A DNA stretch of 62,256 nucleotides, the filler included, from Dugesia japonica (Eukaryota): NCBI GenBank assembly GCA_001938525.1. It is 6 parts of 6 records of this genome, joined end to end, with 100 filler letters (N's around TTAATTAATTAA, not from the genome) between each part and the next. Parts side by side here need not be neighbours in the genome. Positions count along the whole stretch, not along the records: positions 19,586 to 33,401 come from MQRL01645486.1; 5 more parts are not named here. One strand, written 5' to 3'. Positions 12,050 through 39,244 of this stretch are shown here, piece after piece. The notes under the pieces are model-generated. The model searched no databases. It was given only the letters and a program-made list of their open reading frames with translations, and was not told the origin of the DNA. A program made the position numbers and the translations under genes. The stretch's first letter is position 1; every line of letters starts with the position of its first letter.

Positions 12050-13240
12050 TTTGAAATACAAAATCTAACTATAGTTTCTGTTCACTTATATTAATGTTGA
12101 AAATGCTTCCTCACATTGATCATTCCACATTAATTTATTAAATTCGTTTCCACATAATCTTTTCAATACTCTTGAATATTATGAATAATCTTTTATATAG
12201 TTCCTGTGATAGTTACCTAATTCTAGAAAACGTCTTAAAAGATTAATGCAATTTGATTTCTGAAATTTCATTATTACTGATATCTTCTCCCAATTAGTTT
12301 ATATTCCTACTTCTCTAATAATATATTCTTAAAATTTAATCTTTCTTAAAAATATTTACATTTTTCAGGACTTATTTTTAGACCAGTTTCTTTGATTTTA
12401 TGAAATATTTTTTCTGAATCATTGGAAGAACACATGAAAAAATTAGAATAAATAAGTATATCATCTAAATTAACCAATGCATTTTTCCAATTTAAAGAAC
12501 AAAGCACAGTAATCATCAATTTCTGAAAAGTTGTAGAAGCTACAAAAATACCGAAAGGCATCCTCTTGAAACAATATAGACCTTTTTCTTAGACTTTTCT
12601 TTTGATTTTTTAAATCTAACTTAACTTGTGAATATGCGTTTTCTAAATCAAATATAGAGAAAAATTTTGATCCATAAAGTACTTCTAACATGCGATTTAC
12701 AATTCAGCTTTCCATATGCAGTATGGCTACGTATTTGGGTTATCCCAATTAAGCATCCAATTTAATGCTTGATGATCTGTTCCTACCACAAATAGTGATC
12801 CAATTAAATAGTGCCTAAACTTCAGTACAGGCGCTCTTTTTTATGATGTAGTACTGTCTCTGACTTTTTGTTAATGTCTTCGATGCATAGTATAATACTT
12901 AACAGAAGCAAATGCACCTAAGATATATTATCCATCCTTTTTTTGGCAAAGCTAGTACTGGTGGTTCCATCAACATTTTACGTAGCTTGTAAAAATATTT
13001 TTTATTTGTCTACTGAAATTTGTTTTCTTTTTTAACTTTGAATTAAGTGGTACTGATAAATTTGAATAATTATTTTATCTCTTATAATAATTAAATAAAA
13101 AACAAAAATGTTTGAAGTTCTTTTCGGCATTAAAGAATCTCACATTTCTATTGCCATTATTTTATCAGGATTTGTTGCAATTCCATCTTTAGTTACTATG
13201 TGTCCGAGATTTTGTATTCTTTCCTATAAAGTTTCTGCTT
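12050..13240 (-). pseudogene. Gypsy reverse transcriptase remnants
   Basis: FSIFDLENAYSQV, MPFGIFVASTTFQ, ALVNLDDILIYS, GLKISPEKC; LGHIVTKDGIATNPDK near 13160-13210. Confidence 0.85.
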
Positions 13241-15592: not shown

Positions 15593-16111
15593 ATGGAATG
15601 CCTCAGCCAAATTCCTTACACGTCCGTTATTGGATTTATATCTGTAATGATAGGATGTGCAGTAACCGGTGCTACGCTATATGATTCTATTAATCGAACG
15701 GATGAATTATTAACGAAATATTTTTTTAAAATCAATTTTCTGGGAACAGCACTTATCACCTTTACAGGAATGTCTGTAGTGTTGGTAATGATCTGTGTCT
15801 TTGTTCTAATTTTTGCATTTATTGGTACATTGGCTACTAGAAACAAAGTTTATCACAGATCACGATGCATTTTGGGAGGACGAAAAACTGCAGCTTTTGT
15901 AAGAAGTGTTGATCACAATGCTAATTTATTTCTGCAATTCAGTTGATGTGCGTCTTATTTATAGCGAACATTGTGTGGATAGGAGTGATGTGTTTGCTAA
16001 TGGTTCCAGTTTTAGCATGGTTGATGCTAAGTAGTACATGCTTCAATGAGATCTCACAGCATCAAAAGTCGGTGAAACAATTTTCATATAATTTCAGCTT
16101 GAATAATTATG
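15593..16111 (+). CDS. Myelin proteolipid family (M6/GPM6/PLP-like) membrane protein, exons 15593-15898 and 15943-16111
   Basis: CLSQIPYTSVIGFISVMIGC (cf. CLGGIPYASLIATIL), GTLATRNKVY..CILGGRKTAAF, hydrophobic TM segments; 44-nt GTAAGA..GCTAAT..TTCAG phase-0 intron; GTAAG donor at 16112; downstream exons not identified. Confidence 0.85.
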
Positions 16112-16127
16112 GTAAGAATAAACTTCT

Positions 16128-17450
16128 TATAAATACTACTTATAAATATTCATAAATATTCATAAATATTATTCATAAATATTATTCATGAATATTATTC
16201 ATAAATATTCATAAATATTATTCATAAATATTATTCATAAATATTATTCATGAATATTCATAAATATTATTCATAAATATTATTCATGAATATTCATAAA
16301 TATTATTCATAAATATTNNNNNNNNNNNNNNNNNNNNNNNNNNNNNNNNNNNNNNNNNNNNNNNNNNNNNNNNNNNNNNNNNNNNNNNNNNNNNNNNNNN
16401 NNNNNNNNNNNNNNNNNNNNNNNNNNNNNNNNNNNNNNNNNNNNNNNNNNNNNNNNNNNNNNNNNNNNNNNNNNNNNNNNNNNNNNNNNNNNNNNNNNNN
16501 NNNNNNNNNNNNNNNNNNNAATATTATTCATGAATATTATTCATAAATATTCATAAATATTATTCATAAATATTATTCATAAATATTATTCATAAATATT
16601 CATTATATTATTCATAAATATTCATTATATTATTCATAAATATTATTTATGAATAATATTTATTATTTATATATTTATTATTTATTAATTATTATTTAAT
16701 TAATTATTTAATTAATTATTTAATTAATTATTTAATTAATTATTTATTTATTATTTATATATTAATGAATAATATTTATGAATAATATTTATGAATAATA
16801 TTTATGAATATTTATGAATAATATTTATGAGTAATATTTATGAATAATATTCATGAATAATACTACTCATAAATACTACTCATAAATACTACTCATAAAT
16901 ACTATTCATAAATACTATTCATAAATACTACTCATAAATACTATTCATAAATACTATTCATGAATTCTAGTAAATACTACTTATAAATACTACTCAAATA
17001 CTACTCATAAATACTATTAATAAATACTACTCATAAATACTACTCATAAATACTACTCATAAATACTACTCATAAATACTATTCATAAATACTACTCATA
17101 AATACTACTAATAAATACTACTTATAAATACTACTCATAAATACTACTCATAAATACTACTCATAAATACTACTCATAAATACTACTCATGAATACTACT
17201 CATAAATACTACTCATAAATACTACTCATNNNNNNNNNNNNNNAATACTACTCATAAATACTACTCATAAATACTACTCATAAATACTACTCATAAATAC
17301 TACTCATAAATACTACTCATAAATACTATTCATAAATACTACTCATAAATACTATTCATAAATACTACTCATAAATACTACTGATAAATACTACTTATAA
17401 ATACTACTCATAAATACTATTCATAAATAATATTCATAAATACTACTTAC
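16128..17450. repeat. 13-bp satellite: (ATAAATATTATTC)n, inverted block, then (ATAAATACTACTC)n
   Basis: Directly visible tandem units. Confidence 0.95.
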
Positions 17451-17689
17451 AAACATTATCTCAGAAATATTGATTTTAAGTAAAATTATTTGATTTTTGT
17501 TAAAAATATGGATTTTCTATTAGATTTTTGAAATAGAATTATCAATTTTCTAATTTATAAAAGTGATTTTGGTATTGTTCTACTTACATAATTTCCCCCT
17601 ACTCCTGTACATATATAAGCACTATTAATTTAATTAAAACCTCGAGTTAGTCCAATAGTGGGGCCATACTTTGTTCGTGCAAATCTCCA

Positions 17690-18292
17690 TAATTTGATAA
17701 TACGACAAATACTTCGATAATACGACAAATACTTTGATAATACGACAAATACTTTGATATGGCAAATACGTTTATATAATATGACAAATACTTTGATAAT
17801 ACGACAAATACTTTGATATGGCAAATACGTTTATATAATATGACAAATANNNNNNNNNNNNNNNNNNNNNNNNNNNNNNNNNNNNNNNNNNNNNNNNNNN
17901 NNNNNNNNNNNNNNNNNNNNNNNNNNNNNNNNNNNNNNNNNNNNNNNNNNNNNNNNNNNNNNNNNNNNNNNNNNNNNNNNNNNNNNNNNNNNNNNNNNNN
18001 NNNNNNNNNNNNNNNNNNNNNNNNNNNTTTGATAATACGACAAATACTTTGATATGGCAAATACGTTTATATAATATGACAAATACTTTGATAATACGAC
18101 AAATACTTTGATATGGCAAATACGTTTATATAATATGACAAATAATTTGATAATACGACAAATACTTTGATAATATAACAAATACTTTTATATAATATGA
18201 CAAATACGTCGATAATATGACAAATACTTTTATATAATATGACAAATACGTCGATAATATGACAAATACTTTAAATATAATATGACAAATAC
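17690..18292. repeat. Minisatellite of 19-22 bp units (TTGATAATACGACAAATACT) with ~61 bp higher-order unit
   Basis: Directly visible; generates spurious repetitive ORFs. Confidence 0.95.
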
Positions 18293-18412
18293 TGCTTATA
18301 AATATAGTCAGCCCCGTCTGTTCCAATACCACAACGCCCCTATACCGCCAAAAATATTTATTTTAAGCAATTCCCGAATTTGGGCGGTATAATTTTTTAT
18401 TCTCTCATTATA

Positions 18413-19485: not shown

Positions 19486-19585
19486 NNNNNNNNNNNNNNN
19501 NNNNNNNNNNNNNNNNNNNNNNNNNNNNNTTAATTAATTAANNNNNNNNNNNNNNNNNNNNNNNNNNNNNNNNNNNNNNNNNNNN
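19486..19585. other. Artificial contig spacer
   Basis: N-TTAATTAATTAA-N. Confidence 0.95.
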
Positions 19586-20260
19586 TTTGCCGGGTCTGGT
19601 TGTTTTCCTTGATCTGATATTAAATGGCCCAAATATGTCACTTGATTTTTCGCACATTCACACTTTGTAGGTTTCACTCTAAGGTTCCACAATCTTTGTC
19701 TCACAAATATATTTCGTAAATCCTTTAGGTGCTCCTGGAATGTTGTTGAGAATATCAATAAGTCGTCAATATATACCATACTCTGTGGTATCCCGTGTGT
19801 CACAAAATTCATCGTTTGCTGAAATGATGCCGGAGCATTTGTTAATCCAAACGGCATCCTCACAAATTGATACAAATCCTTTCCTGCTGAAAAGGCTGTC
19901 TTCTCTTTGTCTGTCTCTTCTATTTTGATCTGCCAATATCCACTCCGTCAATCTAATGTTGTGAAAACTTTTGCATTACACAATAACATCAACATCTCAT
20001 TGAAATCCGGTAACGGGTATGTATCCTTTTTTGTCTTAGCATTTAATTGTCGATAATCAATACGAAATCTCGCAGATCCATCTTTCGACTTGGAATTGCC
20101 ATGGAAAACAACTGGGTTCAATTACTTTACTCTTGAGCATCTAGTCAATTTTCTCATCACAAATTCCAATATTTACTTCTGCTTGTTTATAGGTTTTCAG
20201 TTTCGCCGGCGTTTCGTCTGTCAAGATAATCGCATGCTTCATTATGGAACCTGTTCCTAG
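19586..20260 (-). pseudogene. Gypsy-type reverse transcriptase
   Basis: DGSARFRIDYRQLN, DTYPLPDF, FTTLD, MPFGLTNAPASFQ, VYIDDLLIFS, VKPTKC, VTYLGHLIS. Confidence 0.92.
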
Positions 20261-20610
20261 TTCGTTATCAGTCCACGCAAATATATATCTGAATTCCTCT
20301 AGTAATGCTAGTAATTGCCTTTTCTTTGATATCGTCAGTAGTGGTGATTCAATTTAAATGTTCAATCTACCTCTTCTCTTTTTGGATCTAAATCGATTTC
20401 CATTCATTTCGCTATTTCGCCTTTAAGTACATCCATTAATTTCTCTTTATTATCATCAACTGTCTCGTCTATTTCGTCCATTGGCGTTAATTTTACAATT
20501 TTTGAGGTGGATATATCGTAATATCTTTTTCCATCATATTTAATACATTTACTGGTACTTTACCAGCTTCCAGTATTTTCGTTTTGAGAACCCTTCATGA
20601 GGTTCAAACA

Positions 20611-21110
20611 TCATTTGTCCTTCCTAATCTGCATCTGTTTTTGCCATATATAGAATACCTGACTCCTCCTTGGTATTAAGATTTTTTTATTCGTATACAC
20701 TTCATTTTCTTTTGTATGTAGGTTCTCTCTAGATCCGGTAATTTGTAGTGTGGTCATATCTAACACTGCATTCTTCATTATCAATCGTATCAAATCTGTT
20801 CTAATTATGCATTTTTCGCTCATTTTCATTATTACCATTTCTTGCATCACAGGTATGTCTTGGAATTCTACCTCGCATTTTAGCTTTCCAATTATATTTA
20901 GCTTACCTCCGTCTGCCACCACGACTTCCGTTTTTGAAGGTGTGATATACGGCCATTTTAACGTTGTCACTAAATCACAATGTAGTACTGATATTATTGC
21001 ACCCGTATTCAATAAAGCTGATATTTTCCGTCCATCAACTGTTACATCTATCATTACTCTCGACCCCACATTAGAACTGTTGTAGTATAAGTATTCTTTC
21101 TTAATTGGTC
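20611..21110 (-). pseudogene. Retropepsin aspartic protease 2 (catalytic D>N)
   Basis: VTVDGRKISALLNTGAIISVL ... VVADGGKLNIIG ... CIIRTDLI. Confidence 0.88.
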
Positions 21111-21239
21111 GTTCAAGTTCACTCACTATAAGACTNNNNNNNNNNNNNNNNNNNNNNNNNNNNNNNNNNNNNNNNNNNNNNNNNNNNNNNNNNNNNNNNN
21201 NNNNNNNNNNNNNNNNNNNNNNNNNNNNNNNNNNNNNNT

Positions 21240-21420
21240 TCATTTTCGCATGTTCCAATAGTATGTCCTGTTTCTCCGCAATTAAAACACTGATGTATAG
21301 CTTTCATACAACGCTCTGTTGTATGATTCATTAAATTACATTTTTCACATCGCTTAGTAAGTTTATTATTTTACCAACAATAATCTGATTGATGGTTAAT
21401 CTTATCACAATGTATACATC
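21240..21420 (-). pseudogene. Three CCHC zinc knuckles (nucleocapsid-like)
   Basis: CIHCDKINHQSDYC, CEKCNLMNHTTERC, CFNCGETGHTIGTC, in the same frame as ORF 21449-21733. Confidence 0.88.
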
Positions 21421-21448
21421 TTGGATGTCTGAACTGAATTTGACTCCT

Positions 21449-21765
21449 TCAATTACTACTAAATTGATCCAAATCTATTTGTCCATCTGGAAATACTTTT
21501 GGCATTATGTATAACCCAGTAATACATTCAACCATGATATTATCCATTATCGTCATTGCGTGCATGAATCGTCCTCGGGACGTTAGTACTAGACAATCTA
21601 TTTCTCCGACGGATTCTATTGCTTCGCCAGTTATCATTATTAGTTCATCTGATGTTTTTCGTCTTTTTAATTTATCTACTTCATATAACACCTTGAAATT
21701 TATTATCGAGCTACTTGCTCCTGTGTCTATCATAAAATCTAAGATTTGACCATTTATTGTTAATC
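21449..21765 (-). pseudogene. Retropepsin aspartic protease 1
   Basis: LTINGQILDFMIDTGASSSII ... MITGEAIESVG ... CITGLYIM. Confidence 0.88.
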
Positions 21766-21857
21766 ATTTCATTAATACTTTGTATCCTGGCGATAACAGT
21801 GGGACTAAACTTTGTGTATCATCTTTTCTGACATCTTCTTCACTTTTCGATATAATA

Positions 21858-22451
21858 CTATTGTTGTCGTTTTTCCTGTTCCACCACTTTTCTTGACAAT
21901 TCATCATACACTCCAAATTCGTCTGTTTGATTTTTATTTTCGTAATAGGCTCCTTGCCATTGTGATGCAGGCGGTATACCTTTTGACTGATTCATTAACC
22001 ATTGATTATATGCTGATGCCGATGCTCCTTCCATTATTTCTTGCAATTCTTCGTATACTTCTTCATCAATGACCGGGTTATATTCCTTTTTCTCGTGATA
22101 TGCATCGGTCCATAGTTGCGCTTGTTGTACGTTTCTCGTCTGTTCTCTTACTCTTTGATTATACTCTGGGGTTGACTCTCGAATCTTCGGCCGATTATTG
22201 TTTGGTCTATCACTGTCATCGCTACTACTATATTGCCTTCTCCGCGGTTTGAATACATCAAATATCGTTGTCTTCCTTTCTTTCCGTTTTCTCATATCTT
22301 TACATATTGCAGGAATTTGATTGATTATCTGTTCATTCGTTCCTCTAATTTGGCTCATATATCTCAGTAATCTTCTTGTGTCATGCAGATTTTTTGAATG
22401 ACTACTTAATACTACTGATTTTGCCCAAGCCGGAAACAATCCCATCATCAT
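21858..22451 (-). CDS. Unknown hydrophilic ORF after the env TM (cytoplasmic tail/linker)
   Basis: 197 aa ORF, basic/Ser-rich; directly follows hydrophobic env C-terminus. Confidence 0.5.
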   Translation of the reverse strand: MMMGLFPAWAKSVVLSSHSKNLHDTRRLLRYMSQIRGTNEQIINQIPAICKDMRKRKERKTTIFDVFKPRRRQYSSSDDSDRPNNNRPKIRESTPEYNQRVREQTRNVQQAQLWTDAYHEKKEYNPVIDEEVYEELQEIMEGASASAYNQWLMNQSKGIPPASQWQGAYYENKNQTDEFGVYDELSRKVVEQEKRQQ

Positions 22452-22454
22452 TGA

Positions 22455-24390
22455 CTAAGATAACTTTCTTTCTTTCTTATATAAATCGAAACACGCTAGT
22501 AATTGTGTTAATATNNNNNNNNNNNNNNNNNNNNNNNNNNNNNNNNNNNNNNNNNNNNNNNNNNACTTTAACTATTTGTACTATGAATATTATTCCTAAC
22601 AATCCCGCTATTGCTTGTCCAAAAACTATTTATTGACCCCACATTTTCTTCATCACATTTACTGTTGCCATCTGAAAATGATCTGGTGATAATAGTAATT
22701 CGTAGTTTGGTCTACCGTCTGATGTGAATCCTCCTCCGGCTATTTGTACAAGATTGGATAGAATTTGGATCCTCTTTACAGGAAATAACATATGTTCTCG
22801 TGCTCTATCTAAGTCGTCTTGCTGGTAAATTCCACCTTCGGCTACATTTAACGGTGTAAATTTTGCTCCACCTTTTAATTGCAATCGTGAAAAATTTCTG
22901 ACTCCTGTTACTGGAAGTCTTCTCGGAAATCGTACCCATTTATTGTTATGTAGTTTAAAGTAATGTCCAAATAGGTTTGAACAACTTATCATGTTCGGGA
23001 CAAATCCTCTTGGTGATATCACTCTGGTGATTGACTGCACAAATCGTCTTTCTCTGTTATATATGATTTCCACCTCATTATAACATTAATTATGTTCTTT
23101 TGGTGCCAACGTTGCGTTCACCTTTTTGCATCGATATATGAACATTACCTCTCCCACAATTCGTGCAAGTTGTCCTTCTTCTATCGGTAATAATGGTGAT
23201 GCATTACCTGGATTTGTAGTTGCTGTTGCCAATTTCGTCTTTAGTATTTCGTTATTTAATGTACAATCGTTCCACACTAGATCATGATATATTTTCTCTG
23301 TTGAGGCTTGTGTTAAATGAAACAAATAATCCACTTTATTATTAATATGGAGATGTACCTTCGTATCCTCTGATGTGATTCCTGCTTTAGCTCTCTCTAA
23401 TCTTGTTTTTGATACCCATAAACTTTTGTAATTCGTTTTGTACACTAATTCTTCACATTTCGATTTTGTTTTCTTTCGTATTAATCGTATCATATCGTTT
23501 TTGCCAGTTGACATTAAGACTACTGGGGTTTCTACCCAGTGTATTTCACCTGTTTTTGGTTTCATTGCTTCATCCATCTTACCTTCTGGTGGTATCGTTT
23601 CCTTTTCATCTACTTCAATAACTTTTTTACCTTGATATTCGTCAAACACGGTTTCTTTTAGAAATGACATTGCACATTCTTGATGATTAACATTATATAC
23701 TAAAGTTGACATTCCAGTATCACATGAAATATCTGACGCTTTACACATAGTATACATTTTCATCAATTGTGTNNNNNNNNNNNNNNNNNNNNNNNNTTCT
23801 TTTAATTCTACTCGATAACTTTCTATCGCTACCACATAACTGGTGACTACCCCCTTTACAGTATAGGTGACTCGAGTACATGTTCCATGTTTATCCGATA
23901 TGCTTCCTGCTGCGAATATTCTTGTTTGCATGGTCTGTCCACTTTTAGCATTAACAATTTTTCCTTCAGCTACTCGTATCTTTCCGGTTATAAATCCTTC
24001 TTCTCATTGCTGTCCTGTTAGATAAATCTATCTCACTTCTTGTCCGGTTTCGATAATTGCTGTATAGCTTCTTGTCCCACAGTAATACACAAAAACTGTC
24101 ATGGTCGCTCTACATTCTCTCACCTTTATCTTGTAATAATCTGATTCCTGATACACAAATATGGTATTGCCTTTTGAAATATTCTTTGTTCTAATTTCAA
24201 TGGATTTGCTTATGGACATTCATCCACGTCTACTAGTGAGTACACTGTTTCTCTAATATCCATTTTATCGCAATCATATGCTTTTANNNNNNNNNNNNNN
24301 NNNNNNNNNNNNNNNNNNNNNNNNNNNNNNNNNNNNCTCGGCCCATCAGAAGCATTATCATTAATACCATTAACATTGATTGTATGCCGT
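22455..24390 (-). pseudogene. Envelope glycoprotein, chuvirus-G/gB-like class III fusion protein
   Basis: Signal-like MLMVLMIMLLMG; KAYDCDKMDIRETVYSLVDVDEC; VYQESDYYKIKVRECRATMTVFVYYCGTRSY; AGSISDKHGTC; NNKVDYLFH; DCTLNNEILKTKL; GQLARIVGEVMFIYRCKKV; RFVQSITRVISPRG..ISC; GGIYQQDDL; TM FGQAIAGLLGIIFIV. Confidence 0.85.
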
Positions 24391-25330
24391 TTGTACTCGT
24401 ATTCGTTCTTGTGCTGCTGTTAGATTCCGTTCCTATTTCATCTATATAATCTTTCATTAATAATCGCGCTCTTTCTGCTAAATTTCGTTGTGGATTCGTT
24501 TCTGGTTTTAATTTTTCTATCAACACTGACCATCCTCCGATTTTCAAAATAAGTGGTTCAATTCTATCATTTATTATTCCAACGATTGGCAACATGTTTA
24601 TTTTTACTTTTGCACTTGGATTATGATGTACTAGCGCCACTTGTGTCTGTTTACATAGGTATGCCAATGCCGTTGCACTTTTCGACGCGCTTGGACATTC
24701 TCCCAATGTTCTTTCGACTGCATATTCCACTTTATCTCGTTTTCTCAGTCCTGTACATTCGAATGCTGGTAGTTTCTGTATTATAGATTCCAATATTGCT
24801 GCAATTTGTTTACACTCCACCGATATTTCTGTATTTCCAATCCACATTTTTAACTCCGGATATAATATTAGTAATACTTGATGCATCCTTTTTTCCGTTG
24901 ATAGTTNTGATAGTTCACAATTCTCCATGATCTCTTGTGATACTGTTACTAATTGTTCGTTTTGTGTCGGCTTTCGACGTGTTGCTCCTTTTGTCGTAAT
25001 AGATCCTCTTGGTCGTCCACGCGCCTTTTGTTCCATTTCTGTCTCTACATCGACCATTATTCTTTGATATATTTCGTGATCTGTTGTTTCTTCTTGATTA
25101 TCCGTAGTTTCGATTGCATTATCTGTTGTCGTTATTTCCTCTTCGAATTCTACTGGTGGACATATATTTTCTCCTCCAAATTCGTATTCTGATGTAGTTG
25201 GCATCCTTGAGTTTTGCTCGAATTCCATTAACGGTATTCTCTCCTTTATATCTCCAATTGTTTCGTATGCCAGACCGGTTATCTTAGTTTCGTATCCTTT
25301 CGGATCTATTATTTGAAAGCGGTATTGTCG
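24284..25330 (-). CDS. Accessory ORF: Ubl-like half domain, acidic linker, AT-hook, Bcl-2-like domain, then env signal peptide
   Basis: YRFQIIDPKGYETKITGLAYETIGDIKERIP (in frame upstream of ATG 25228); KARGRPRG; INDRIEPLILKIGGWSVLIEKL (BH2-like). Confidence 0.6.
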   Translation of the reverse strand, partial: RQYRFQIIDPKGYETKITGLAYETIGDIKERIPLMEFEQNSRMPTTSEYEFGGENICPPVEFEEEITTTDNAIETTDNQEETTDHEIYQRIMVDVETEMEQKARGRPRGSITTKGATRRKPTQNEQLVTVSQEIMENCELSXLSTEKRMHQVLLILYPELKMWIGNTEISVECKQIAAILESIIQKLPAFECTGLRKRDKVEYAVERTLGECPSASKSATALAYLCKQTQVALVHHNPSAKVKINMLPIVGIINDRIEPLILKIGGWSVLIEKLKPETNPQRNLAERARLLMKDYIDEIGTESNSSTRTNTSTNGIQSMLMVLMIMLLMGRXXXXXXXXXXXXXXXXX

Positions 25331-25396
25331 AGGTTCAATTTCATCAGTTTCTAGATCTCGTCATTTTTTAATGGTTGCTCTGAACTGTGATGGCCT

Positions 25397-26956
25397 TCAC
25401 TCACACTCTTCCTTAAATCGTGATATCTCAAATATCAGTTCTCTTAGTTCGAATATTGATAAATCACTATTCAGAATCTGTTTGGCTAATTCTTGAACTT
25501 GGTCCCTTGGAATATTTGTTTCATTAATTAATGATATAAATTGTTTCACTATTTCTGATGCATAGTCGTTTGTTTTCTTTATATGTCTTATCATTGCTAA
25601 CCTCTCTACTGATCCGTATAACTCCTGATTGGATCGGTATTGACAACTTAATGTTTTTCTTGACAGTAACATTGTCACTTTGCGTTTTGCTTCGACACGT
25701 CTTTTTACTGTTTCCATATTTTGCCATATTAATTTGTCTCGTTCATTTATTCTGGCTACATCAAAAAGTTTGATATTTGCTAATATTATGAGATCTCGAA
25801 GTATATTTTTGGAGTTTCTCTCTTTTGCATGACCAAATGCCTCTGCTATATCCTTTAATTTAACTACTTGATTTCTTAGTTGTGGTGGTTCATTTGATCT
25901 TGGTCTACCTCTCGATCGTCTCGCAGTTTCTTCATTAGAAGTGCCTGGCTCATCTGGATATCTCGGCTTCTATGATTTTGTATTTTTAACTATATTTTTT
26001 ATTTGAACCGGTTGACTTGCATTTTCTATTTAAGCTGGTTGGTTATTGTTTCTTACCTGGGCTTGTTGATTATCGGCTGGAGAATCTAGTTCTTAAAAGA
26101 TTTTCTTATGTGGGACATATCTCTTTTCTTTTTATCTTTTATTTCTTCTACTATATCTTGATCAAAAAGATCTAATATTTTATTCATCGCTTCCTGCTGT
26201 CCTTCGGATAATCTATTTATTATCTTGACTTTTATATGATTATCACCTTCAGTAATAATTCCATATTCCATCAATCTTTTATTTTCAATTAGCTCCTGAT
26301 TATAGAAATATAATTTTATTTCATCATCCTCTTCTAATGTTATCAGCCATTTTGCTCTTATTAGTTTTCGTAATTTTTCGGTTTTTGTAAGCGTATGTGT
26401 GCTTATTATTACAGCTTTTATATTGCAGCTACCTGGTTCCGTAGAAGCTTGTATTATTATAGGTTTCTGCCACTCTACATTTTTATGGCAAATTCACTGT
26501 ATTTCTTTATTAATTCATTCATTATTCTATGAATTTCGTCAAATCCTATCCTGTCTTTCACTTTTACTAGTGGAATTATTAATTTCTTTAATTCATGATA
26601 ATTTATTGGGTATTCGATTATATCTTTAAATATTGTATTAATCTAAGTTCATTTATATTCTCTTTGGCCATTTTATGTCTTAAATTTCCCATTATCGATT
26701 TTTGTTTACTCTCATCTACTTGCTCATCTAAATCTATGTTAACTGATTCATAAGTATTTATTTCATANTCATTGGTCTCTTGTTGCCTCTCTTGCATTCT
26801 CTCACATCTGATTCGTAATTCTTGTAATTCTGCTCTCATATTTTCGTATTCATTATTTTGAGCTACTTTAATAACGTTTACACCTTTTGTCTCAGGTCCA
26901 AATGATAATTCTTTCTTTATTATACTTATGGGATCTCGCTGCTGATTCAGACGCAT
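25397..26956 (-). pseudogene. Decayed accessory ORF(s) between gag and env, incl. AT-hook
   Basis: Co-directional ORF fragments 26618-26956, 26086-26274, 25397-25717; RRSRGRPRS at ~25897-25922. Confidence 0.55.
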
Positions 26957-27998
26957 TCTGGCTAAGTGCCCATATTTGTTACAGTTATAACATTTTATCT
27001 GTTCTCTGTTATTTACTTGATCTCTCCCTTCATTTGAATAATTACTGTTAGTTCTGTCAGTATAGTTCCTCCTTGGACTTTTATTATATCTATAGTTTGA
27101 ATCAGATTCTCTTTTAGGGCTATATCCTCTATTATTAAATCTTGAACTCGAGTTTCTGTAACCTCGAATTATTATTTCAATTTCCCCTTGGACTGGAATT
27201 TCTATTCATGTAACCCTTCTCTGGGTATCCTTAAATTCGGACTTGAATTTTTATTATATTTATTTTTGTTATCATTATAATTATTTTTTCTATTATCTTG
27301 ATGATTTTTATATGCTCGTTTCATATTACCCCATTGCGTAGGTTCTCAATCATCTGACATGTTTGTTTCTATAACATAAATTTGTTTATCCTTAGGTTTA
27401 TGATTATAATTTGACTCAATCCTTCGGGCTTTCGTCATCAACTCTTCAATATTTTTATATTCTACTGTTATCAGAGCAGATTTTATATAGCTATGTATTC
27501 CACTTATGAATCGGTCCTCTATAACGTGTTCAATATCATCGCCTTCTCCCAAGGCCATTTTAGCTAATTTTTTTAAATCGTATAAATATTCACCTACATT
27601 TTTTGTAGCTCCTTGCATCCTATTTCGAAATTTTTGTATACATATCCTTTCTAACTTTGTGGGACTATTATAAGCTTTCTGAGCTCTTTTATTAGTTCAT
27701 TAAAATTCTTGGGTGGATTTATTAAATTTTTATAACTTTGTAATGCAAACCCTTTTAAATACAATGGTACTCTTTTTACCAATTCATCATTTGTCCAATT
27801 GCACGCTATTACACAGATGGACATTTCTTCAAAATATTCGTCAAATTCTTCGGGTTTCCCGGAGTACTTTTTTAATGGTAAATAATTCATTTTATTTCGA
27901 TCACCAAAGCCAAACATAGGCGCTATATTAAAACCGTTTTCTTGTTTATTTACATTGTCGTTACCTTTTTGAGCCATAATTATATCTCTGCTTCTCAA
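26945..27998 (-). pseudogene. Retrotransposon gag (capsid + CCHC)
   Basis: LKKYSGKPEEFDEYF..CNWT..LYLKGFALQSY; QGATKNVGEYLYDLKKLA..DRFISGI; CYNCNKYGHLAR near 26955-26990. Confidence 0.9.
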
Positions 27999-28436
27999 TT
28001 TATATACAATGTTATCGTTTGTATCAATTGTTTATATTATTTGTTATATTCACTTTATTTTTAAATATTCGTATTAATGTGTCTCTTTTATATACTTGTA
28101 AGAATATTAAATACAAAACTGTCAAAAGAATCCTTATATAATTTAAGATCGTTATCTTATTTAAAATATTTAGTCACAGGGTATCACTTTAAATTTTAAA
28201 TTCTTAAATATTTTCACAAATTTAACTATATTGTAAATTTCTTTTCAACTCGTAAATCAAAAATTTTCTAAATTATATTTCAATCAGGTTTCGTTTCAGT
28301 TTAAAATCAAATTTTATTTCAACTTAAAGTCAGTTTTCATTTTATTTCTCAAAAGCAAATTTTATTTTTAAGTTTCAATTTTAGTTTTGAACACTTGTAA
28401 ATTTGAATATATATATTATATTTTACTTGAATTGGC

Positions 28437-28454
28437 TCCTCACTCGGGGCCCCA
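28437..28454 (-). promoter_or_regulatory. Primer binding site, elongator tRNA-Met type
   Basis: TGGGGCCCCGAGTGAGGA after LTR end CTCAACA-AATT; near match to complement of elongator tRNA-Met 3' end (TGGTGCCCCG.GTGAGG). Confidence 0.7.
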
Positions 28455-28458
28455 AATT

Positions 28459-29450
28459 TGTTGAGATTTCTTTAGGATTTCGCAAAGGCAAATCAACAAG
28501 ATCGTGAGTTTAGTTTCATAAGAAATTTGAATATGAAATCCGAATATATTTTATATATGGCTTTCCTAAAAATGATTAATATAAATGTAGCAATATCGTA
28601 TAAATACACGATATAGTATTCCTTATACAAATAAATAAAAAAAGTTTTATTAAAGTTCAACAATAATTTGAAAAGTTTCTCAAGTTAATATTTTTATTCT
28701 NTGGTCTGCAACTTTAGAAGTTTTAGACCTTATAAAAGAATTTAAAATGAGGGTGATAAAAATAAAAATAAGCTCTCTATTTATACTAGAGAGATACGCA
28801 TGCAAATTATCGGAATTTGTAAAAATTCATAAGAATAATACAATAATTTATTAAAAATTATAAATATTTACTAAATTTATCTATTAAAATTTTTATTTTT
28901 ACAAAATTGTTTATGATAAGAAATTGTTATTTAATAATATCCGTTAAATCGAAATTAAAATTAAAACCAAATAGAATAATTAAATTATATTTTACATAAA
29001 GAATTAAGAAAATCAATAATATAATAACCTGCGTATTATTTAATAATATCCGTTAAATCAAAATCAAAACTGATTAAAATTAAAACCGAATAGAATAATT
29101 ACATAAATATCCATTAAATCGAAATTAGAACTGATTTCACTTTTAGAACTGATTAAAACCGAATATAATAATTACATAAAGTGTAAAAATAAAATTGACA
29201 TAAATAATTAATAAAAATTCAAATCATAAATAGTCAAATATAAAAAGTCTGATGTCAGGTTGTGAAAAATAAAAGTCAAAAATAAAGTCTGATTAGTTTA
29301 AATTTTTGATCACTTTGAATTGTCGAATCCATTGTTTGATTTGGGCAGCTACATTGATATTGAACTGAATGTGTTGTTTGTGTATATGTGTATTTATTTA
29401 TAAGCTTATAGATTTGTTGTTAGTATATTGTTAGTATATTATTTATGTGC
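28459..29450 (-). mobile_element. LTR region (outer boundary uncertain) with internal ~70-100 bp degenerate repeats
   Basis: Ends CA before the PBS; ATATCCGTTAAATCGAAATT..AAAACC.AATAGAATAATT repeated at ~28935, 29045, 29107. Confidence 0.5.
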
Positions 29451-29454
29451 TAAT

Positions 29455-32180
29455 TTTCCTCAACATTTATATTGGAAATCATTCTTTTTTATTTTGTGTG
29501 GTTCTACACGAACTACCATCTACTCCCCAACTTGGAAAATTTTCTGTCTACGCTTTTCATTTTCAAAAATTGCCATTTTATTAGCTGCTCCATTTAAATT
29601 TTGTCTAACTTTCTCTAAGTTAACTGTTTTGTTTTAAAAAATGGTTTTCGTCTTTGCATGCAAATTTATACGCATTCCAAAAATAATCTCTAATGATGAC
29701 AATTTTGTCGACTCTTGAATAGTAGTGTTTATACTGAACTCACATCTTGGAGGTAATGCATCCCAGTTTTTCTCATTACAATTTTCTTTTAGTGAAGNNN
29801 NNNNNATATCTCTTATCGTACGAATCATTCTTTCTACCAGCCCATTCGATTGGTATTGTTACGGAGAGCTGAACTCTTGTTTAATATTAAACTTCGCTAA
29901 CTTATCTGACATGTATTTACTCTCAAACACTCTTCCTCTGTCGGTTGATATGCTTTTCAGTTTGCCAAAACGATATATCCATTTGTTCAAAATTATTCCG
30001 ATAATTGTTTCTTCATTTATCTTTGATACCGCTGATATATTTACCAGTTTGCTAAACCAATCTATAATCACCACCATATACTTTTGTCTGATGCCACTGT
30101 TTCCATATGTGCAATATCTACCACAATTTGTTCCAAAATATCTTGACACTTTCTAAGTAATATAAAATATTTTATTCTTCCTTGATCAATTCTCCTTTTT
30201 GCACAAATCAGATATTTATTCAAGTTATTTTTAATAGTCTCTATTAGGTATTTTTAAAAAAGTAAATTTTTAATTGTTTTTAAATGTAAAATTGCAAATT
30301 ATGAAATTGAAATTTTAAATATTAATTTAGAAATTAGTAGTCTAAATNNNNNNNNNTTATTAAATGAATTTTAGATATAAATACGTAATGTAAAACTTTT
30401 TATTCAAATTTATAATTGGAATTTTTTTTAATTTAGATATAAAATTTAATTGAAAATTTGGAAAATTATTAATAAATTTGAATTNNNNNNNNNNNNNNNN
30501 NNNNNNNNNTTTATTTTTAAATAAATTTGTATTTTATATAATTTAAATAATTTAATAAAATGTTTTAAAATAATTTGTTTAAATTCATTATTATTTTGAA
30601 AACATAATTGGGAAAGGCAAGTGTTGGATGAAGCATTCAAAAAGCAAGAAGAATTTCAAAGAAGAATTATATGTATTTTAAATAAAGTATTGAATCAAAA
30701 GTCTTGTTTTGGTCGATTTAAATGAAGAAAACAAATAAAGCTAACAGTCTCCATCATTGCAGGCCAGTAATAATTATTCTCTAAATATGAAAATATCTTC
30801 TTTTTTCTTAAATGACATAATTCTTCATGAATATATCTGATCATTTCGTTGGTTATACTCGTTGACACTATTATCAAATTTTATTTTCTCTTTCTACGAC
30901 TAACAATTCATCATCAATTTTCAATTCGCAATTAAGTTTATCCAAATAGTTTCTCTGAATGATCTTTTCTGCTAGTCGTACTTTGTTTTGCATTATTACA
31001 ATTATTCTTTGTATTATGGATCATCTTTCCTTGCTTTCCTAATTTTTTCTACGATGTTTTCATTCTGTTGTATGCTGTTATTATATTTTACTCTTGATTT
31101 TTCTTTCTTGGCATCCAAATGTACAGTTTGGCATTGTGAGCATAAACTCTGATTTAACTGCGATAATTCATCAGCATTGTTGTGTTCTCGCTCTTTGCGA
31201 TATTTTAACTTAAAATCATATTCTCCCAGATTTGCAATCCACGTCTTATCGTTTTTTTGTGTTATTCATAAATATTAATGCTTTGTAATCTGTTCTTGCT
31301 AAGAATTTCTTTCCATATAGATATTGTTTGAAATGTACAACATATTCATGTAATGCGAGCAATTTGTTTCTTGTAACACAGAAGCCCTTTTCATGAGCAG
31401 TAAGGTGTCTGAATCCATATGCTATCACCAATTCTTCTCTATTTTCTGTTCTTTGTATTAATATTACACCGATAGCTCCGAAACTTGCATCAGTATCTAA
31501 GATAAACATTCTATTTTCTCTTGGATAATCTAGAATTGATACATTACATAATTTGTCTTTTAAGTTTTCAAACTTTTTTCTGCATGCTTCTGCTTACATC
31601 AAAGTTTTGTCACATCCTGAAATAGCTTGATATAAAAGTGTTGCAATTCTTGGCATAATCCTTGATAAAACGCCTGAAGTAATTCGTTAAACCAAGAAAA
31701 TACCTGAGTTTAGATGAACATTTTGGTTCTTGAGCAATTTTTATCACCCCAATCTTAGTTTTGTTTGTTTTTATTCCTTTTAGGCTTATTGTGTGTCCCA
31801 AAAAGACCAGTTTTTTTGGTGAAATTTACATTTTTCTGGATTTATCCTCAAACCCGATTCTGTTAAAAACTTTCAAAATTTCATTATGATCTACGACTGT
31901 TCTTCCATACACTAATATATTATCTAGATATACGATGACACCTTTAAAAATCAACCCTGTTAACATATAATGCATCAAATTTTGAAATGTTGCCGGTGCC
32001 GTTGATAATCCGAATGGAATCTGATTGAACTTAAACTGACCCTTTTTTGTACTAAACGCTGTTACATCTCTCGAGCTTACTGATAATTTTACATGGTAGT
32101 AAGCTTGTCCTAGATCAATTGAAGAAAATATTTTTGCACCTGCTAAGCAATCCAATAATAACCGGATGCCTGGCATCATA
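29455..32180 (-). pseudogene. Gypsy pol (RT-RNaseH-integrase), interrupted at ~30245-30720
   Basis: SSIDLGQAYYH, IPFGLSTAPATFQ, VYLDNIL; FILDTDASFGAIG..ARTDYKAL; HEELCH..YYWP; IIDWFSK..ISTDRGRVFES. Confidence 0.9.
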
Positions 32181-32657
32181 AATGAAACTTTTTATTTATT
32201 ATTATAATTATCATTATTATAATTATATATAAGTAGATTTATTAGGATTTATCAGATTTTTATCGTAATTTAAGATTTAAAAAAAATTATTTTTAACCAT
32301 TAAGAAAGGATTAAAATTATTAAAAATACGGGAAATTACTGAATATTAAATAGAATCAAAGTCTACTCAAATTAATTCAAGATATTGATTCGGGAGATTT
32401 GTTCAACTCAAGAATACTACATGACGAAATATTTCCAGATGTGTTGGTGGAGTTTTAATGTAAGAATTAAATGATAATAATGTAGTAAGTTATAATATGT
32501 TTACTAAGCATTTATAATAATAATATTATATATTTAAATAATTGATTAAATTGATGTTGATAATATTGTGTAATTGTGAAAATTGTTTGTATTTTCTATG
32601 ATTTGTTGAGATATAAATTTATAGCAAATGAAATATTTGAGTTATATGTGGAAATTT

Positions 32658-33075
32658 ATGAAGGAAAATAAATTTCAATTAATAGATGAAGTTAATAATT
32701 ATTTGATTTGTAATAAATATTTGGTGAAGGCTTATAATGCTTTTTGCGGTTACAAATATTGCTAAAAAATTGCATAGAAAATAATTTAGATGGTCANGAT
32801 AAGTTTTCAAAAAAAATTAATTTTGTCAAAGGAAAACACATGATTTTGAGAAAGATGTTGTTATTTAGAATTAGCATTGAAAATTCAGAAATTGTTGAAA
32901 AATGTCGAAATAAATATTTTGAATTCACAGATGAGTTGGGTTTGATAGAAAACCATATGGGAATATGCGATAAGAACCCAACAAGTTGTCCATATTTCGA
33001 AATAAGATGTAAGAATAATGAGGTGTTTAATGGTAAAACGAAAAATCATCTTTGTACATGGATTTAATGTCACAC
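32658..33075 (+). pseudogene. RING + TRAF-type zinc finger gene (TRAF-like) pseudogene
   Basis: YLICNKYLVKAYNAFCGYKYC*/KNCI (decayed RING); VEKCRN...LGLIENHMGICDKNPTSCPYFEIRC...KNH (TRAF zinc finger); stop and frameshift. Confidence 0.7.
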
Positions 33076-33101
33076 TAAACTATTATTAGATTTTATCAAT
33101 A

Positions 33102-33401
33102 TGTTGGGGCTTTACCCTAGGTGGGTTGATTAAATCTAGGGGGTCGAAACTTTATAGGAAATTAAGTCTACGGTAATTGACCTGGTAAAACCCCGCGATG
33201 AATTTTAATCTGGTGTCCTTCAAAATTTCCAGATCTTCGGAATAGAGCCGTTGACTCGGAATCCGAGTACAGACTCGCATTCCTTTGGTTTGGGTTCGTA
33301 TTTCATGACACTCGCTTGATTTTTAACTCATACTTATCAATTGTTGATTTATTCGATTTCAGCTTATAACTGGTTTTATTGTATTTTTAATTTATCAGTC
33401 C
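33102..33401 (-). mobile_element. LTR terminus, same family as 10223 and 37650
   Basis: TGTTGGGGCTTTACCCT..AAATCTAGGGGGTCGA..TTTATAGGAAATTAAGTCTACGGTAATTGACCTG. Confidence 0.7.
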
Positions 33402-33501: not shown

Positions 33502-33937
33502 TATATTATTTAAACAACATGTCCGAATTTCTATAAAAAACTCCCATAAAAAATATTTTCCCATTCAAAAACCTTAAAAAAATTCTACTGCTTAAACAGC
33601 CTTTAAAAAATTCTACTGCTTAAAAAACCTGAAAAATTTTCCCAACTAAATACATTAGAAATATTTAAAAACAGTTAATCCTATTACATAAAATTTCACC
33701 GATGAAATTAATCTCATGACATAATTTTTTTTTAAATTTTTTATTTACATTAGAAAAATTTAAAAACAGTTATGTAACAATTCTTGCGACAAGATTAATT
33801 ACATTATGTAACGCACACAAATGTGTGCTGCCGCCTATTTACATTAGAAAAATTTAAAAACAGTTATGTAATAATCCGATTACGTCGGGGGGGGGCTCTG
33901 CATGTGTGCTGTTCTTTACAACTACTATCTATCTACT
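33502..33937 (+). mobile_element. Polinton terminal inverted repeat, second copy
   Basis: Similar to 1057-1376; ends CTACTATCTATCTACT at 33937. Confidence 0.75.
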
Positions 33938-36900
33938 CAGTGACACTACATGATGCGCTGGCTGCATTGCAAATTGTAGCAGATAGGCCATCCGAACGAA
34001 TATTCAAAGTAGAAGGACAGATAGAGGAAACTATACCACGGATATCAGATTTCATACCCAATACACAATCAATGATGAAAACTCTGACCCCAGAGCAGGA
34101 ACGAAATAAACGGAATGATAGATCTGATTAGCCCAGAGGAAATAGTAGAGGATTTAATGCACCACGGAATAATTGGCAAAATAATCGAGACATCCAATGT
34201 AATACCTGCGAAAGAAGGGGACACATAGCTCGCGACTGTAGAAGTAGAGATAATAATAGCAATAATACAACAATCGATTTTGTCCCTATTGCAAGAAGAC
34301 CAACCACAATATAGAGACGTATTTTTTGAAAAATCTGACGGTCTGTTATAAGTGTAACAGAAGAGTAGATATAGCAAAAGAATGTCCAAACGGAAATCAG
34401 CCAAGTTACAATAGAAACCCAAATGCAAATTTGTATAATCTAATGCAAGAGAATGAGAGATTGAGACAATGAGTAAATCAAAACAAGAGACAAGTCAATA
34501 TAGTTCATCAAAGTACTTTCGACAATGTGTACCACAAGGTGCAACAGGAAAATGACTGGCTCAAGTGGCAAAACCAAGATTTGCAAGTACAGCAGGAGAG
34601 ACTAGCCAAAAGGAACTTATTAAATGAACCCCACAAGAATCAGTGTAATATGATCAGGACACACAGGCAAATTTATAACCAACATGATAAAACAACGGAA
34701 ATTACTGGAATGGAAGATACTCGAAAATGAATAGAGACTACGTCACCAGAATTTGAGTGGACTGAAAAGATCATCTATAAAACAATAAAAAAAAATCAGT
34801 AAAAAATCAGTAATGAACCAGTTACTTCGCTTTTACCAGCACCCACAAGCACATGCAAAAGTAAAAGCTAACTGACAGAAAACAATATCAAACTATATTG
34901 CCGAATTATACCAAGAAACTCAGCTAGAGGATTATGAGTTCGAAATTCAGTATGTATGGCATGGCAAAATAGACGTCATCCCAAAACGGCTAAAGTTACC
35001 ACTTAAAGGAATGACAGTACGACATTTGAAAGAAGCCATCAACGAGATAAAATGGAGTGAAGTAGATGGTATCAAGGGTATGACGGTAAACTCGTTTCTC
35101 GAATCACCACCATTTGACGTTCAGCAACGATGGAATGGAAAGTGGAATGAGCACAAATTGCAATTAGATAATGTAGGAATCAATATCCTGCCAGATAATC
35201 AGAATCTAATATATTACGGAGCACGACCTCATGAAACTACCATAATTAAATTTATAAATTGGGATTCGGTATTCCGATCACAGACAGTAACTCGGGAAAT
35301 AGAAACAGATGAGCTATATCATAATCTCGAAGAAACATTCTTAAAGGAAATCGTTCCCCTCCAGTCTCAAACCTACATGCGGAAAAGATTGGGGACAGTA
35401 AGGCTAATGGACTATCCTGAATTGGAACGAAATGAAGCGTCATGACTATCCCAAGCCCGAATCGATGAAATACTGATAGCCGCTCAGAAACTCCATGCTA
35501 CGATAAAGCAAGAAGTATACTTAAAATTGACAAATCAATTGGTCGAATTATTGAAGTTTTACAACTGATCACCGAATGCGAAAGCGATTGGACAGAATGG
35601 TTACCAGTGCATTACGAGTAGGTAATATCCAACCTGGGATTATCAGATTACCAAGTATGGTTATATAACCCTGAAGGAAATATGAAGCTGACGCTCACGG
35701 GATCGATGGTAGAAGATCTAGAAACTGCATTTAATCAAGCAGGTTCTCCAAGTATAACCGATAAATATGTATGTACTCCAAGTGCTATAATAGACTTCAA
35801 CGCCAGAAAAAGACATCTATACGATTTTGGAGTAAACCTTGGAGAGGACATTGAAATTGTAGTATTAGACAAACATTCGGGTATCGACTACGACATCTGG
35901 ATAACGAAAACCGGAAGATCAGCGTTAGAAATCATGGGGGAAATGGAGTATTTATATAAACAGAATGTGGAACCCATTAAAATAAAGATACTTTCCACGG
36001 TCTTCGGGTAGAAAGATGAACTGACAACGGAAGAAAGGAAACAGCTACTAATGACGCGTAACGATTTCCTTAGATAACGATTAGAGAGAAGAGAGGGTAA
36101 ATGCAACATGATAAGAATGCAACAGATGCCATCGAGAGAGGTAATAGCAATGTGTATGGTGGAATAAATGGTTAACCGGGTACAGATGGAGAAGGAGAAC
36201 TTACCTCGAGAAACCTATTAGATGATAATGAATAGAATCTATGACATATATGATGGGCTGGAAATACCGGAGGAAATTGAGAACCAATGGTTCGTGATTA
36301 GACAGAAGTATGCCGAAGAGATACTGACAACTACTAAAATTCGGGACTATCAATTAAATTTGAATATAGGTATAAATGAACAAGAACTGACTAAATACAG
36401 CCGATTAAAACCACAAGGTATAACCATGATGGATCTAATGGATGCTGTTACCGACAAGTGGCGTTAACAGGGACTAAATATGGTACCTCTGTTCATAAAT
36501 GACAAATTAGTCGAGACAAAAGACGAGGATAAACACATATTCCAATGCCATGCAAAGCCCGGAGAAATATGCGAGTTAGATGTAGAGGAGGGATCACCAA
36601 CCAACCAGACACCCGGTCTCGAAGAACGAATGGAAGAGATAACAGAATTATATGTGACTGAGGTATTGTCTGGCATAAAGGAACAAGTAAAAGAAAATCA
36701 AAAAATACAGAATATCGATAATCTGCCCATAATTACCACAAAATCAGTGGAATTTCCAGAAGGGACACCAACAATACGCGATATTCGAATGAACTATATG
36801 AAACCGATAACGGAGGAATCTGCCACATTTCATGCTATCAACAATCTCTTACGAGTAACCCGAGAAACTCAACAAGTAGTAAACATCAAGGTATATTGGA

Positions 36901-37744
36901 AAATGATGAATAACCTACGGGATTTAGCAATATATGGACAACTCAGCTTATGGGCTCGAGCACAATGGTGGAAAGAGAAAACCTTATATGAAGAGGAAGT
37001 ACAAAATACATCTACAATATCCGACTATTCTATCAGAATTAGCCTCCTTAATAAAGAGGGAATCATAAAAAAGGTAGATATGATAACGCTGGAAGGGTTA
37101 ACGATCAACCATATCATAAAACCAATCAAGAAATGGCTATCAAGATATGGCTATCGCTTAAATCCTATAAAATACAGGCAGGAGCAACAATGATAATATT
37201 AGCCAAGAAAGAGGACCACGTCTTTCTACATAATATCAAACCAGGGTAGATCACAGAAATCAAACTAACACCAAGTAAAATGACCATAGACATCCCGATA
37301 CCAAAAATGCCAGACACCGACCAACTCATATTCAATATGATGAGTTTATATCTACAAGAAATACTACCGGTAGAAAATGAACGACTGATAAACACGTATG
37401 GGGAAAACAAAGTCCAAATAAACATGGTTCGGGATAATAACCGAGGCACTCCAGATTTATCATCAGATGAAGAAGAGCAGGAGGAAGAAATCTCGGAGGA
37501 TATTGGCCAACCCCGGTTGTTACCATTTAAACATGAATTCACTGGCCCTTTCAGTTTCCCTCAGACGGAACGGATTTCAAAGATAATTTCCGATTTCTGT
37601 CATTTCCTAGAAAGGATACCTCGACCAGTGTTTTGGAAAGCATTAAAAGCAGATCAATGACCCTAGACTTGATTTTATATAAAGATCGACCCCTCTAGAT
37701 TTAATCACATAAACCAATAACGTAAAAAGGGTAGAACCCCAACA
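33938..37744 (+). mobile_element. Decayed LTR-element: gag C-terminus, long accessory ORF with ubiquitin-like domains, LTR end
   Basis: CNTCERRGHIARDC at ~34198-34240; co-directional ORF fragments to 37660; ends in CCCCAACA LTR terminus; no pol seen. Confidence 0.7.
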
Positions 37745-37749
37745 GTAGT

Positions 37750-37930
37750 TACAAACTCTAAATAAAGTTATTAATATTTTTTCAATACATCCTTTTTAGC
37801 GTCGCTCAAATTTAAATTACCACGAACAATATTTACAAAAATCTCAATTAAATCATCTATAATATATGGTGAGAATGATTGCATAATTTTAATTCTAGAA
37901 AATTACGATGATTTAATTCAACGCGGTGAA
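37750..37930 (-). pseudogene. Conserved small Polinton ORF typically next to the ATPase
   Basis: IIDDLIEIFVNIVRGNLNLSDAKKDVLK resembles the Polinton pattern ExxLNxLxGNxxLxxxxKxxL. Confidence 0.55.
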
Positions 37931-38219
37931 AAACAGAGTACTTATTTCTGATTTCATTTTTATTTCAATAAAACATACCTACCAAAGAATCGTTTATAAT
38001 GAATCGTTCTTTTCAGTATCTTTCTGGAACTTTTTGCAAGTTTTTGAAACATATTTAATTGTTTTTTGTTATTTGCAAATGTCTTCTTATACGATTGTTT
38101 CGTCTTTTGTTTAACAACAGGCATTTTTGTTGTTTAACAAAATCACAGTTAATAACTGAATAAACTACAATTTTCTTAATGTATGCCATTTTATATATAA
38201 TATTAAGAACATTACCTAT

Positions 38220-39240: not shown

Positions 39241-39244
39241 AGAT

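Follow-up and report, generated by a model that had tools for sequence, protein, structure and literature searches.

A decayed Ty3/gypsy element of Dugesia japonica with its envelope between gag and pol, and repeated protease domains among its relatives

The element at the locus

Here, we describe a retroelement of the planarian Dugesia japonica (NCBI GenBank assembly GCA_001938525.1). It was found in a stretch of 62,256 nucleotides, filler included, that joins parts of six records and that we call the window. The element lies on the minus strand of the window, within the part from MQRL01645486.1 (window positions 19,586 to 33,401), and carries an envelope gene (env) between gag and pol. A first-pass annotation, made from the sequence alone, had read it as a Gypsy-type element, and this holds: the long terminal repeat (LTR) end, primer-binding site (PBS) and gag follow in order, and the reverse transcriptase (RT; RVT_1, E 1e-22) goes with Gypsy-type polyproteins. 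The same annotation listed an LTR end, PBS, gag with a CCHC motif, accessory region, glycoprotein, linker, protease, three CCHC motifs, protease and RT, all of which are present in that order. The features are given below, where P0004 is the intact relative that matched best in our search from env to RT.

28459..29465 (-): 5' LTR; its 3' end, ...TCAACA at 28459, is firm, and its start at 29465 is a candidate only
28438..28454 (-): PBS, possibly for tRNA-Met(CAU); a 17-mer starting TGG, separated from the LTR end by 4 nt
27349..27977 (-): gag capsid region in two frames (tblastn with the gag of relatives)
26951..26992 (-): gag zinc knuckle, single and degenerate (zf-CCHC, E 8.4e-5)
26150..26430 (-): likely ubiquitin-like domain, weak match (PF11620 GABP-alpha, E 0.003)
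24905..26088 (-): accessory coding stretch that fits no known family; two RGRPR motifs lie near 25920 and 25020
24482..24904 (-): Bcl-2-like domain just upstream of env (joint profile with four relatives)
24338..24390 (-): internal signal sequence of env (hydropathy 2.2)
22565..24284 (-): class III (gB/chuvirus-G type) env ectodomain and C-terminal transmembrane segment, broken (PF24664)
21861..22454 (-): cytoplasmic linker, a 198-aa open frame with no Pfam match
21470..21763 (-): aspartic protease 1 with a DTG triad (PF13975 gag-asp_proteas, E 1e-6; 29.8 bits against the protease profile)
21248..21418 (-): three CCHC zinc knuckles between the proteases, starting at 21418, 21349 and 21289, in the frame of protease 1
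20764..21051 (-): aspartic protease 2, catalytic triad altered in this copy (PF13975, E 1.6e-4; 42.6 bits)
20560..20690 (-): remnant of the protease-RT segment (dUTPase-like in the Burro element, a label from PMC6431247); two short motifs match P0004 by eye, with conserved spacing
19588..20338 (-): RT (RVT_1, E 1e-22), which stops at the 100-base gap 19486-19585

All parts share one strand and a uniform composition (A makes up 37-48% of the coding strand from 19586 to 28000). The sequence ends at the gap 19486-19585, and for that reason RNase H, integrase and the 3' LTR are lacking. The Pol order of protease, then RT, can be seen before that gap, and the full order of protease, RT, RNase H and integrase is found in P0004, P0040 and P0045. 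At the other end, the candidate LTR start is a 7-nt inverted repeat of the LTR end (0.06 expected by chance in 1.5 kb) that falls within the integrase tail of a neighbouring element. The window holds neither a second LTR nor a further copy of the element. The window likewise holds no tRNA or Rfam match. When compared by eye with supplement 1 of PMC13524379, a 12-mer of the PBS has two mismatches to two Met_CAU rows and one to an unnamed tRNA row. Gag starts ~480 nt from the PBS, with no accessory open reading frame (ORF) upstream of it, and the distance from the gag knuckle (26992) to env is 2711 nt.

Following the best-matching frame by eye, we count ~18 stop codons and 12 frame changes along the element. 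This copy is therefore dead: it is heavily decayed and can make none of the products proposed below, and the earlier suggestion of a potentially infectious lineage cannot apply to it. GAG-ENV-POL errantiviruses with a gB-type envelope are expected to have intact ORFs and several near-identical copies, which is not seen here; that reflects the present state of this copy and not its descent.

The gag capsid region has no Pfam match and is recognized by tblastn through P0004 (31%, E 1e-7), P0047 (E 1e-14) and P0056 (E 3e-14), with a further capsid match to relatives at E 2e-14. P0004 also has one gag knuckle, at the matching place. Downstream, 26150-26430 is probably ubiquitin-like. PF11620 is a family that we take to have a ubiquitin-like fold, the best PDB sequence matches of the stretch are polyubiquitins (through summed weak stretches only), and P0043 gives a weak match (E 0.018). 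A second such domain, suspected by eye at 25163-25360, was set aside without Pfam support. The accessory region 24905..26088 returned no significant Pfam match; its RGRPR motifs are presumably AT-hook-like. MATH, BIR, ankyrin and Smc have no Pfam match in the element. The stretch before env shares a region with a W-x3-GGW-type motif with four relatives, and the joint profile of these five sequences matches Bcl-xL (E 1.5e-4) over BH1-BH2. On its own, the window's stretch has no match in Pfam and none in a single-sequence PDB search. P0046 reaches E 1e-3 to Pfam Bcl-2 at the same place, below the curated cut-off.

Envelope and intact relatives

The envelope had been annotated as a complete glycoprotein. 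It is full in extent, but it is broken by one frame change, at least five stops and three small N gaps. Our query, P0003, is a 544-aa single-frame piece with stops read as X, and it matches PF24664 with 211 bits (E 2.6e-62) over profile positions 56-565 of 653. A hydrophobic signal precedes the ectodomain and a transmembrane segment follows it; the signal sits at the same position, ahead of the A-Y/F-D-C start, in seven relatives. Homology runs on across all three N gaps (flanks compared by eye). The 24-N gap has the length expected from P0004, and the two 50-N gaps look, again by eye, like placeholders for shorter stretches.

Using HMMER over 1.84 billion representatives, we retrieved 713 env relatives at E up to 0.001. 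A profile of P0003 with 97 relatives was then compared with the PDB, where all 34 matching sequences (E up to 10; best E 0.003) are herpesvirus gB. The AlphaFold2 model of env has a mean pLDDT (predicted local distance difference test) of 90 and a 48-residue central helix. Among the Foldseek matches listed for it, 38 of 38 rows are herpesvirus gB (best E 1.1e-10, probability 1.0). Nearly all rows have TM-scores of 0.34-0.43 and a root-mean-square deviation of 12-15, and the likeness is therefore one of fold class, not of close shape. Pfam, PDB profile and model thus agree on the class III assignment made in the first-pass annotation, with a gB-like fold as predicted by the model. Single sequences fared less well: a PDB search with env alone gave 0 matches, word-indexed searches using env alone found nothing, pattern scans of viral contigs and metagenome contigs gave no confirmed relative, and one env piece run against a protein atlas scored 0.82 or less only.

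What places the envelope in its element is the set of intact relatives. A search from env to RT returned 26 proteins from 3227 candidates, with P0004 best. (Four of these first 26 matches, P0005, P0008, P0009 and P0011, have two proteases and two RT motifs each and were excluded as joined gene models.) P0004 is a single chain of 3761 aa. It runs from gag and one knuckle through env (844-1469) and two proteases to RT, RNase H and integrase, after which come a third protease and a second membrane protein. Of the seven members of its cluster, five are full length; each of these has its own contig of 12-17 kb, and they are 99.6-99.8% identical. The window is collinear with P0004 on one strand through gag (31%), knuckle (27%), env (36%, over 546 aa, E 6e-100) and RT (54%). 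Spacings also correspond: protease 1 to protease 2 measures 239 aa in the window and 259 in P0004; protease 2 to the next motif, 110 and 115, as for P0004's RT-adjacent protease; the transmembrane segment to the protease, ~299 aa (including 50 N) and 259; and the RT motif spacing is equal. Only the accessory region differs, at 904 aa versus 454.

The trees agree. The window's RT is 53-56% identical to that of four env-carrying polyproteins and 43-56% to that of Gypsy-type polyproteins. In RT trees built from Gypsy-type rows, with no BEL/Pao or Copia references, the window's RT branches as sister to the cluster of P0004 (34 rows, support 97/97) and groups with the four env-carrying polyproteins (19 rows, 93/95). 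A quick env tree puts it among the polyprotein-embedded envelopes and apart from eight stand-alone glycoproteins (Shimodaira-Hasegawa-like approximate likelihood ratio test, 100), without settling its placement inside that group.

Taken together, the locus is very probably one decayed insertion of single origin, a Burro-related Ty3/gypsy element of a kind already published as GAG-ENV-POL. The proposed order of gag, accessory region, env and pol stands, and the intact relatives share it. The relatives are also single ORFs, which supports the earlier suggestion that this element was originally one long polyprotein.

Repeated proteases and the modules between them

The first-pass annotation also listed a pair of proteases. 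Both are present, but the catalytic triad of protease 2 is altered. Are two proteases usual in such chains? Among the best 150 of the 713 env relatives, 12 have env in the same chain as one or more protease domains. The profile used to scan these combined the three proteases of P0004 with one from Meloidogyne. Six of the 12 have at least two: P0040 (two ahead of RT and one past the integrase), P0041 (2), P0042 (3), P0043 (4), P0048 (2) and P0053 (2). The last protease is partial in P0042 and P0048, and four of the six chains end before RT, which makes the counts minimums. Pfam independently shows two or three protease stretches in five of the six. The DTG triad is kept in all 12 relatives, and in 16 of 16 domains of the multi-protease ones; P0004's own triads read DTG, DTG and DSG. 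In the protease tree, copies from the same element cluster together (P0053, 97/89; P0041, 93/78; P0043 b-d, 91/94), which suggests repeated tandem duplication of protease domains.

Zinc modules stand between or after the proteases in some chains. The window's three CCHC knuckles are well above chance (0.007 expected per shuffled region, 300 shuffles). P0040 has two C2H2 zinc fingers (1025-1100) between proteases, where the window has its knuckles, and P0041 has C2H2 zinc fingers near 1275. A further feature is found at the other end of some chains. After the integrase, P0004 (3065-3761), P0040 (2305-2855) and P0045 (C-terminal 400 aa) continue in frame with a second signal, ectodomain and transmembrane segment; P0004 and P0040 have a further protease just ahead of this membrane protein.

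From these observations we tentatively propose that the lineage evolved protease arrays. Each membrane-spanning polyprotein would carry two to four active retropepsins, beside each anchor, acting as tethered intramolecular dimers or with separate specificities, and with a slot for zinc-finger cargo between them. Several points weigh against this. Extra copies are not required: exactly one protease stands before RT in four of the 12 relatives (P0045, P0049, P0054 and P0059), one evidently suffices there, and P0045 also has the second membrane protein. (In P0047 and P0098 the chain ends after one protease.) CCHC knuckles between proteases were found in none of the 12 relatives checked. Most of the protease tree is unresolved (of its 26 branches, 2 are starred), and by pairwise scores the window's proteases do not match P0004's according to position.

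A rival reading takes the architecture as real but holds that the extra proteases do nothing special: template switching would have duplicated them as neutral by-products, which the polyprotein tolerated. Copy number runs from one to four, with four of the 12 relatives managing on one; some duplicates look lineage-specific; and the window's second triad is altered. Yet the multi-protease relatives and P0004 keep the triads given above although copies within one element lie far apart in sequence, and in P0004 and P0040 a further protease is placed just before the second anchor. We regard neutrality as rather unlikely.

For the protease arrays, novelty is uncertain. We found no description of duplicated or multiple retroelement protease domains among the matches listed in the literature searched (Repbase entries and figures lay outside its scope), and nothing on protease arrays among the matches listed for the Burro polyprotein. 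They are apparently undescribed. That the extra proteases have a specialised role which is also new to print is possible rather than probable.

Known systems and what the arrays may mean

An element order of this kind is not new. The first-pass annotation had set it against the env genes of retroviruses and errantiviruses, which lie 3' of pol. A new lineage or an unprecedented order is not supported: both PMC6431247 and PMC13524379 already contain this order. Chary and Hayashi (eLife; PMC13524379) describe GAG-ENV-POL Ty3/gypsy elements with an HSV/gB-type envelope (HSV, herpes simplex virus) in Platyhelminthes, Nematoda and Bryozoa. Their six Schmidtea mediterranea families (Smed_errantivirus_1-6, in the Platyhelminthes C1a group) have 1-215 copies, are intact and span 14.5-18 kb. 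These share gene order, class III envelope and Gypsy pol with the window element, and their env segments (supplement 2) resemble the window's motif by motif by eye, families 6 and 5 most. The Smed families are intact and multi-copy, whereas the window copy is dead. In its main text, the words "accessory", "Bcl", "polyprotein" and "in-frame" are absent and "protease" occurs once, so that arrays and cargo are not discussed there.

The planarian Burro (GYPSM1) described by Arkhipova and Yushenova (2019; PMC6431247) is one polyprotein whose env lies in frame after gag and before pol, with a ubiquitin-like and a BCL2 domain ahead of env and a dUTPase-like segment between protease and RT. Its env matches mononegavirus fusion proteins and was likened there to gypsy Env. 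The window's env tests as class III. The cargo upstream of env is the same in kind (Bcl-2, E 1.5e-4; the ubiquitin-like match is weak). The text on Burro names one protease, whereas the window has two, with one knuckle in gag and three after protease 1. Burro is also a giant (ORF1 near 5,000 aa, >30 kb, with MATH, BIR and ankyrin cargo), features that the window element, its 3' part missing, does not display. Please note that we set the two apart by published description and not by sequence comparison.

Could the window then hold a truncated Burro proper, and not a compact relative? The cargo order is the same (gag, ubiquitin-like, Bcl-2, env, protease, RT), and a third planarian genome is reported to contain fragments of Burro in decay (PMC6431247). 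Against this, gag to the end of RT covers ~2,800 codons versus 4,873-5,140 aa for the whole Burro ORF1; the candidate LTR is ~1 kb, with ~480 nt from PBS to gag and no accessory ORF upstream; gag has one knuckle, not two or three; and MATH, BIR and ankyrin have no match. A truncated giant is thus quite unlikely, and the window element is, on its sequence, Burro-like in cargo but compact.

The first-pass annotation had offered a junction of two elements, or misassembly, as its alternative. This would join a gag-env-protease part to a nucleocapsid-protease-RT part, in a draft assembly with N gaps inside the element, where three knuckles followed by protease and RT resemble the end of an ordinary gag and no relative has knuckles at that place, but it is highly improbable: RT and env point to the same relatives, intact single ORFs have two proteases at similar spacing, homology is continuous over the three env gaps (flanks by eye), and protease 1 and the knuckles share one frame with no gap between. 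We conclude that the locus is not a chimera, because its intact relatives have these parts too, identically ordered, in one frame and with matching spacings. Weighing against a single origin is that its junctions are known from a draft assembly only, and that a 103-N gap (21136-21238), not bridged by homology, parts the knuckles from protease 2; a small doubt stays at that gap.

Two further systems show part of the same design. Nematode non-canonical endogenous retroviruses (ERVs; Sacco et al. 2022, as cited in PMC13524379) are one. The Meloidogyne ERV P0038 (2828 aa; also P0021) has gag, env, protease, RT, RNase H and integrase in one chain, as in the GAG-ENV-POL order; it has a single protease, no accessory cargo, a distant env and an RT at 37-38%, outside the window's clade. 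The mosquito BEL/Pao elements carrying a chuvirus G (Dezordi et al. 2020; PMC7642597) are also LTR retroelements that captured a class III chuvirus-type glycoprotein, but theirs is a different superfamily; in trees that hold no BEL/Pao reference, the RT of the window element joins the Gypsy-type polyproteins instead.

The window is low in G+C and holds further decayed elements. A compact Gypsy pol, likewise decayed but separate from the element, lies at 29400-32200 (-), with matches for RT (E 1e-16), RNase H (E 9e-24) and integrase (E 3.5e-9); this RT and that of the element are 30% identical. The tail of the neighbouring integrase stops at the start of the candidate LTR, and the element may therefore have inserted into that pol. 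An A-rich, decayed coding stretch at 33800-38000 (+) has gag-type knuckles near 34100-34270 (matching P0053, E 3e-5), followed by four ORFs of 129-241 aa without a Pfam match, perhaps a related element's accessory region. Fragments of Gypsy pol and protease, decayed as well, lie at 6006-6398 (+), 12092-12822 (-), 39231-39518 (-), 47942-49814 (+) and 51572-52968 (-). A 657-aa open frame at 1320-3290 (+) encodes a DNA polymerase B of the protein-primed type (PF03175, E 1.6e-20), perhaps a Polinton-like fragment. Likely host exons match the Snf7 family (E 2.6e-19; 45942-46418, -) and the myelin PLP/M6 family (E 2.7e-9; 15593-15943, +), both of which speak for an animal host. Tandem arrays occupy 16100-17300 (10/13-nt units), 17670-18300 (59-nt) and 44160-45480 (12/15-nt). 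The 100-base gaps at 10123, 19486, 33402, 42987 and 52978 consist of 44 N, 12 bases and 44 N, an artefact that lies behind long inverted repeats.

How might a chain that crosses a membrane be processed? Going by hydropathy and established polyprotein biology, the internal signal would thread the polyprotein through the membrane of the endoplasmic reticulum, with the ectodomain in the lumen. Host signal peptidase would cut at that signal and leave Gag, with the ubiquitin-like and Bcl-2-like cargo, in the cytosol. The transmembrane segment of env would bring the chain back to the cytosol, and Pol would stay tied to the Env tail until cut by a retropepsin. In relatives with a second membrane protein, Pol would be anchored at both ends and the retropepsins would have to release it; the repeated protease domains, adjoining the anchors, would likely free the enzymes from the membrane-anchored envelope.

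Retroviral-type proteases act as homodimers of one domain. Several rounds of tandem duplication would have given rise to the extra domains, and such copies could pair within a chain, or could differ in specificity and cut sites. The nucleic-acid-binding zinc modules between the proteases would be released, or would help Env-Pol to bind genomic RNA. The window's three knuckles would form a second module resembling a nucleocapsid, which a duplicated nucleocapsid-protease unit may have left behind.

An envelope between gag and pol was already known, and in that respect the locus adds one more decayed example. The doubled protease with its zinc-module spacer is the part worth following, for it bears on a question of processing: how a single membrane-crossing chain is cut into capsid, envelope and enzymes. 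A family whose proteases number two to four, look catalytically complete and vary among close relatives is a natural setting in which to compare the control of protease activation and of cleavage order, and also the ways in which apoptosis and ubiquitin cargo is carried by planarian elements. If the proposal is true, protease arrays would be a new solution to the problem of how one frame can yield Gag, Env and Pol.

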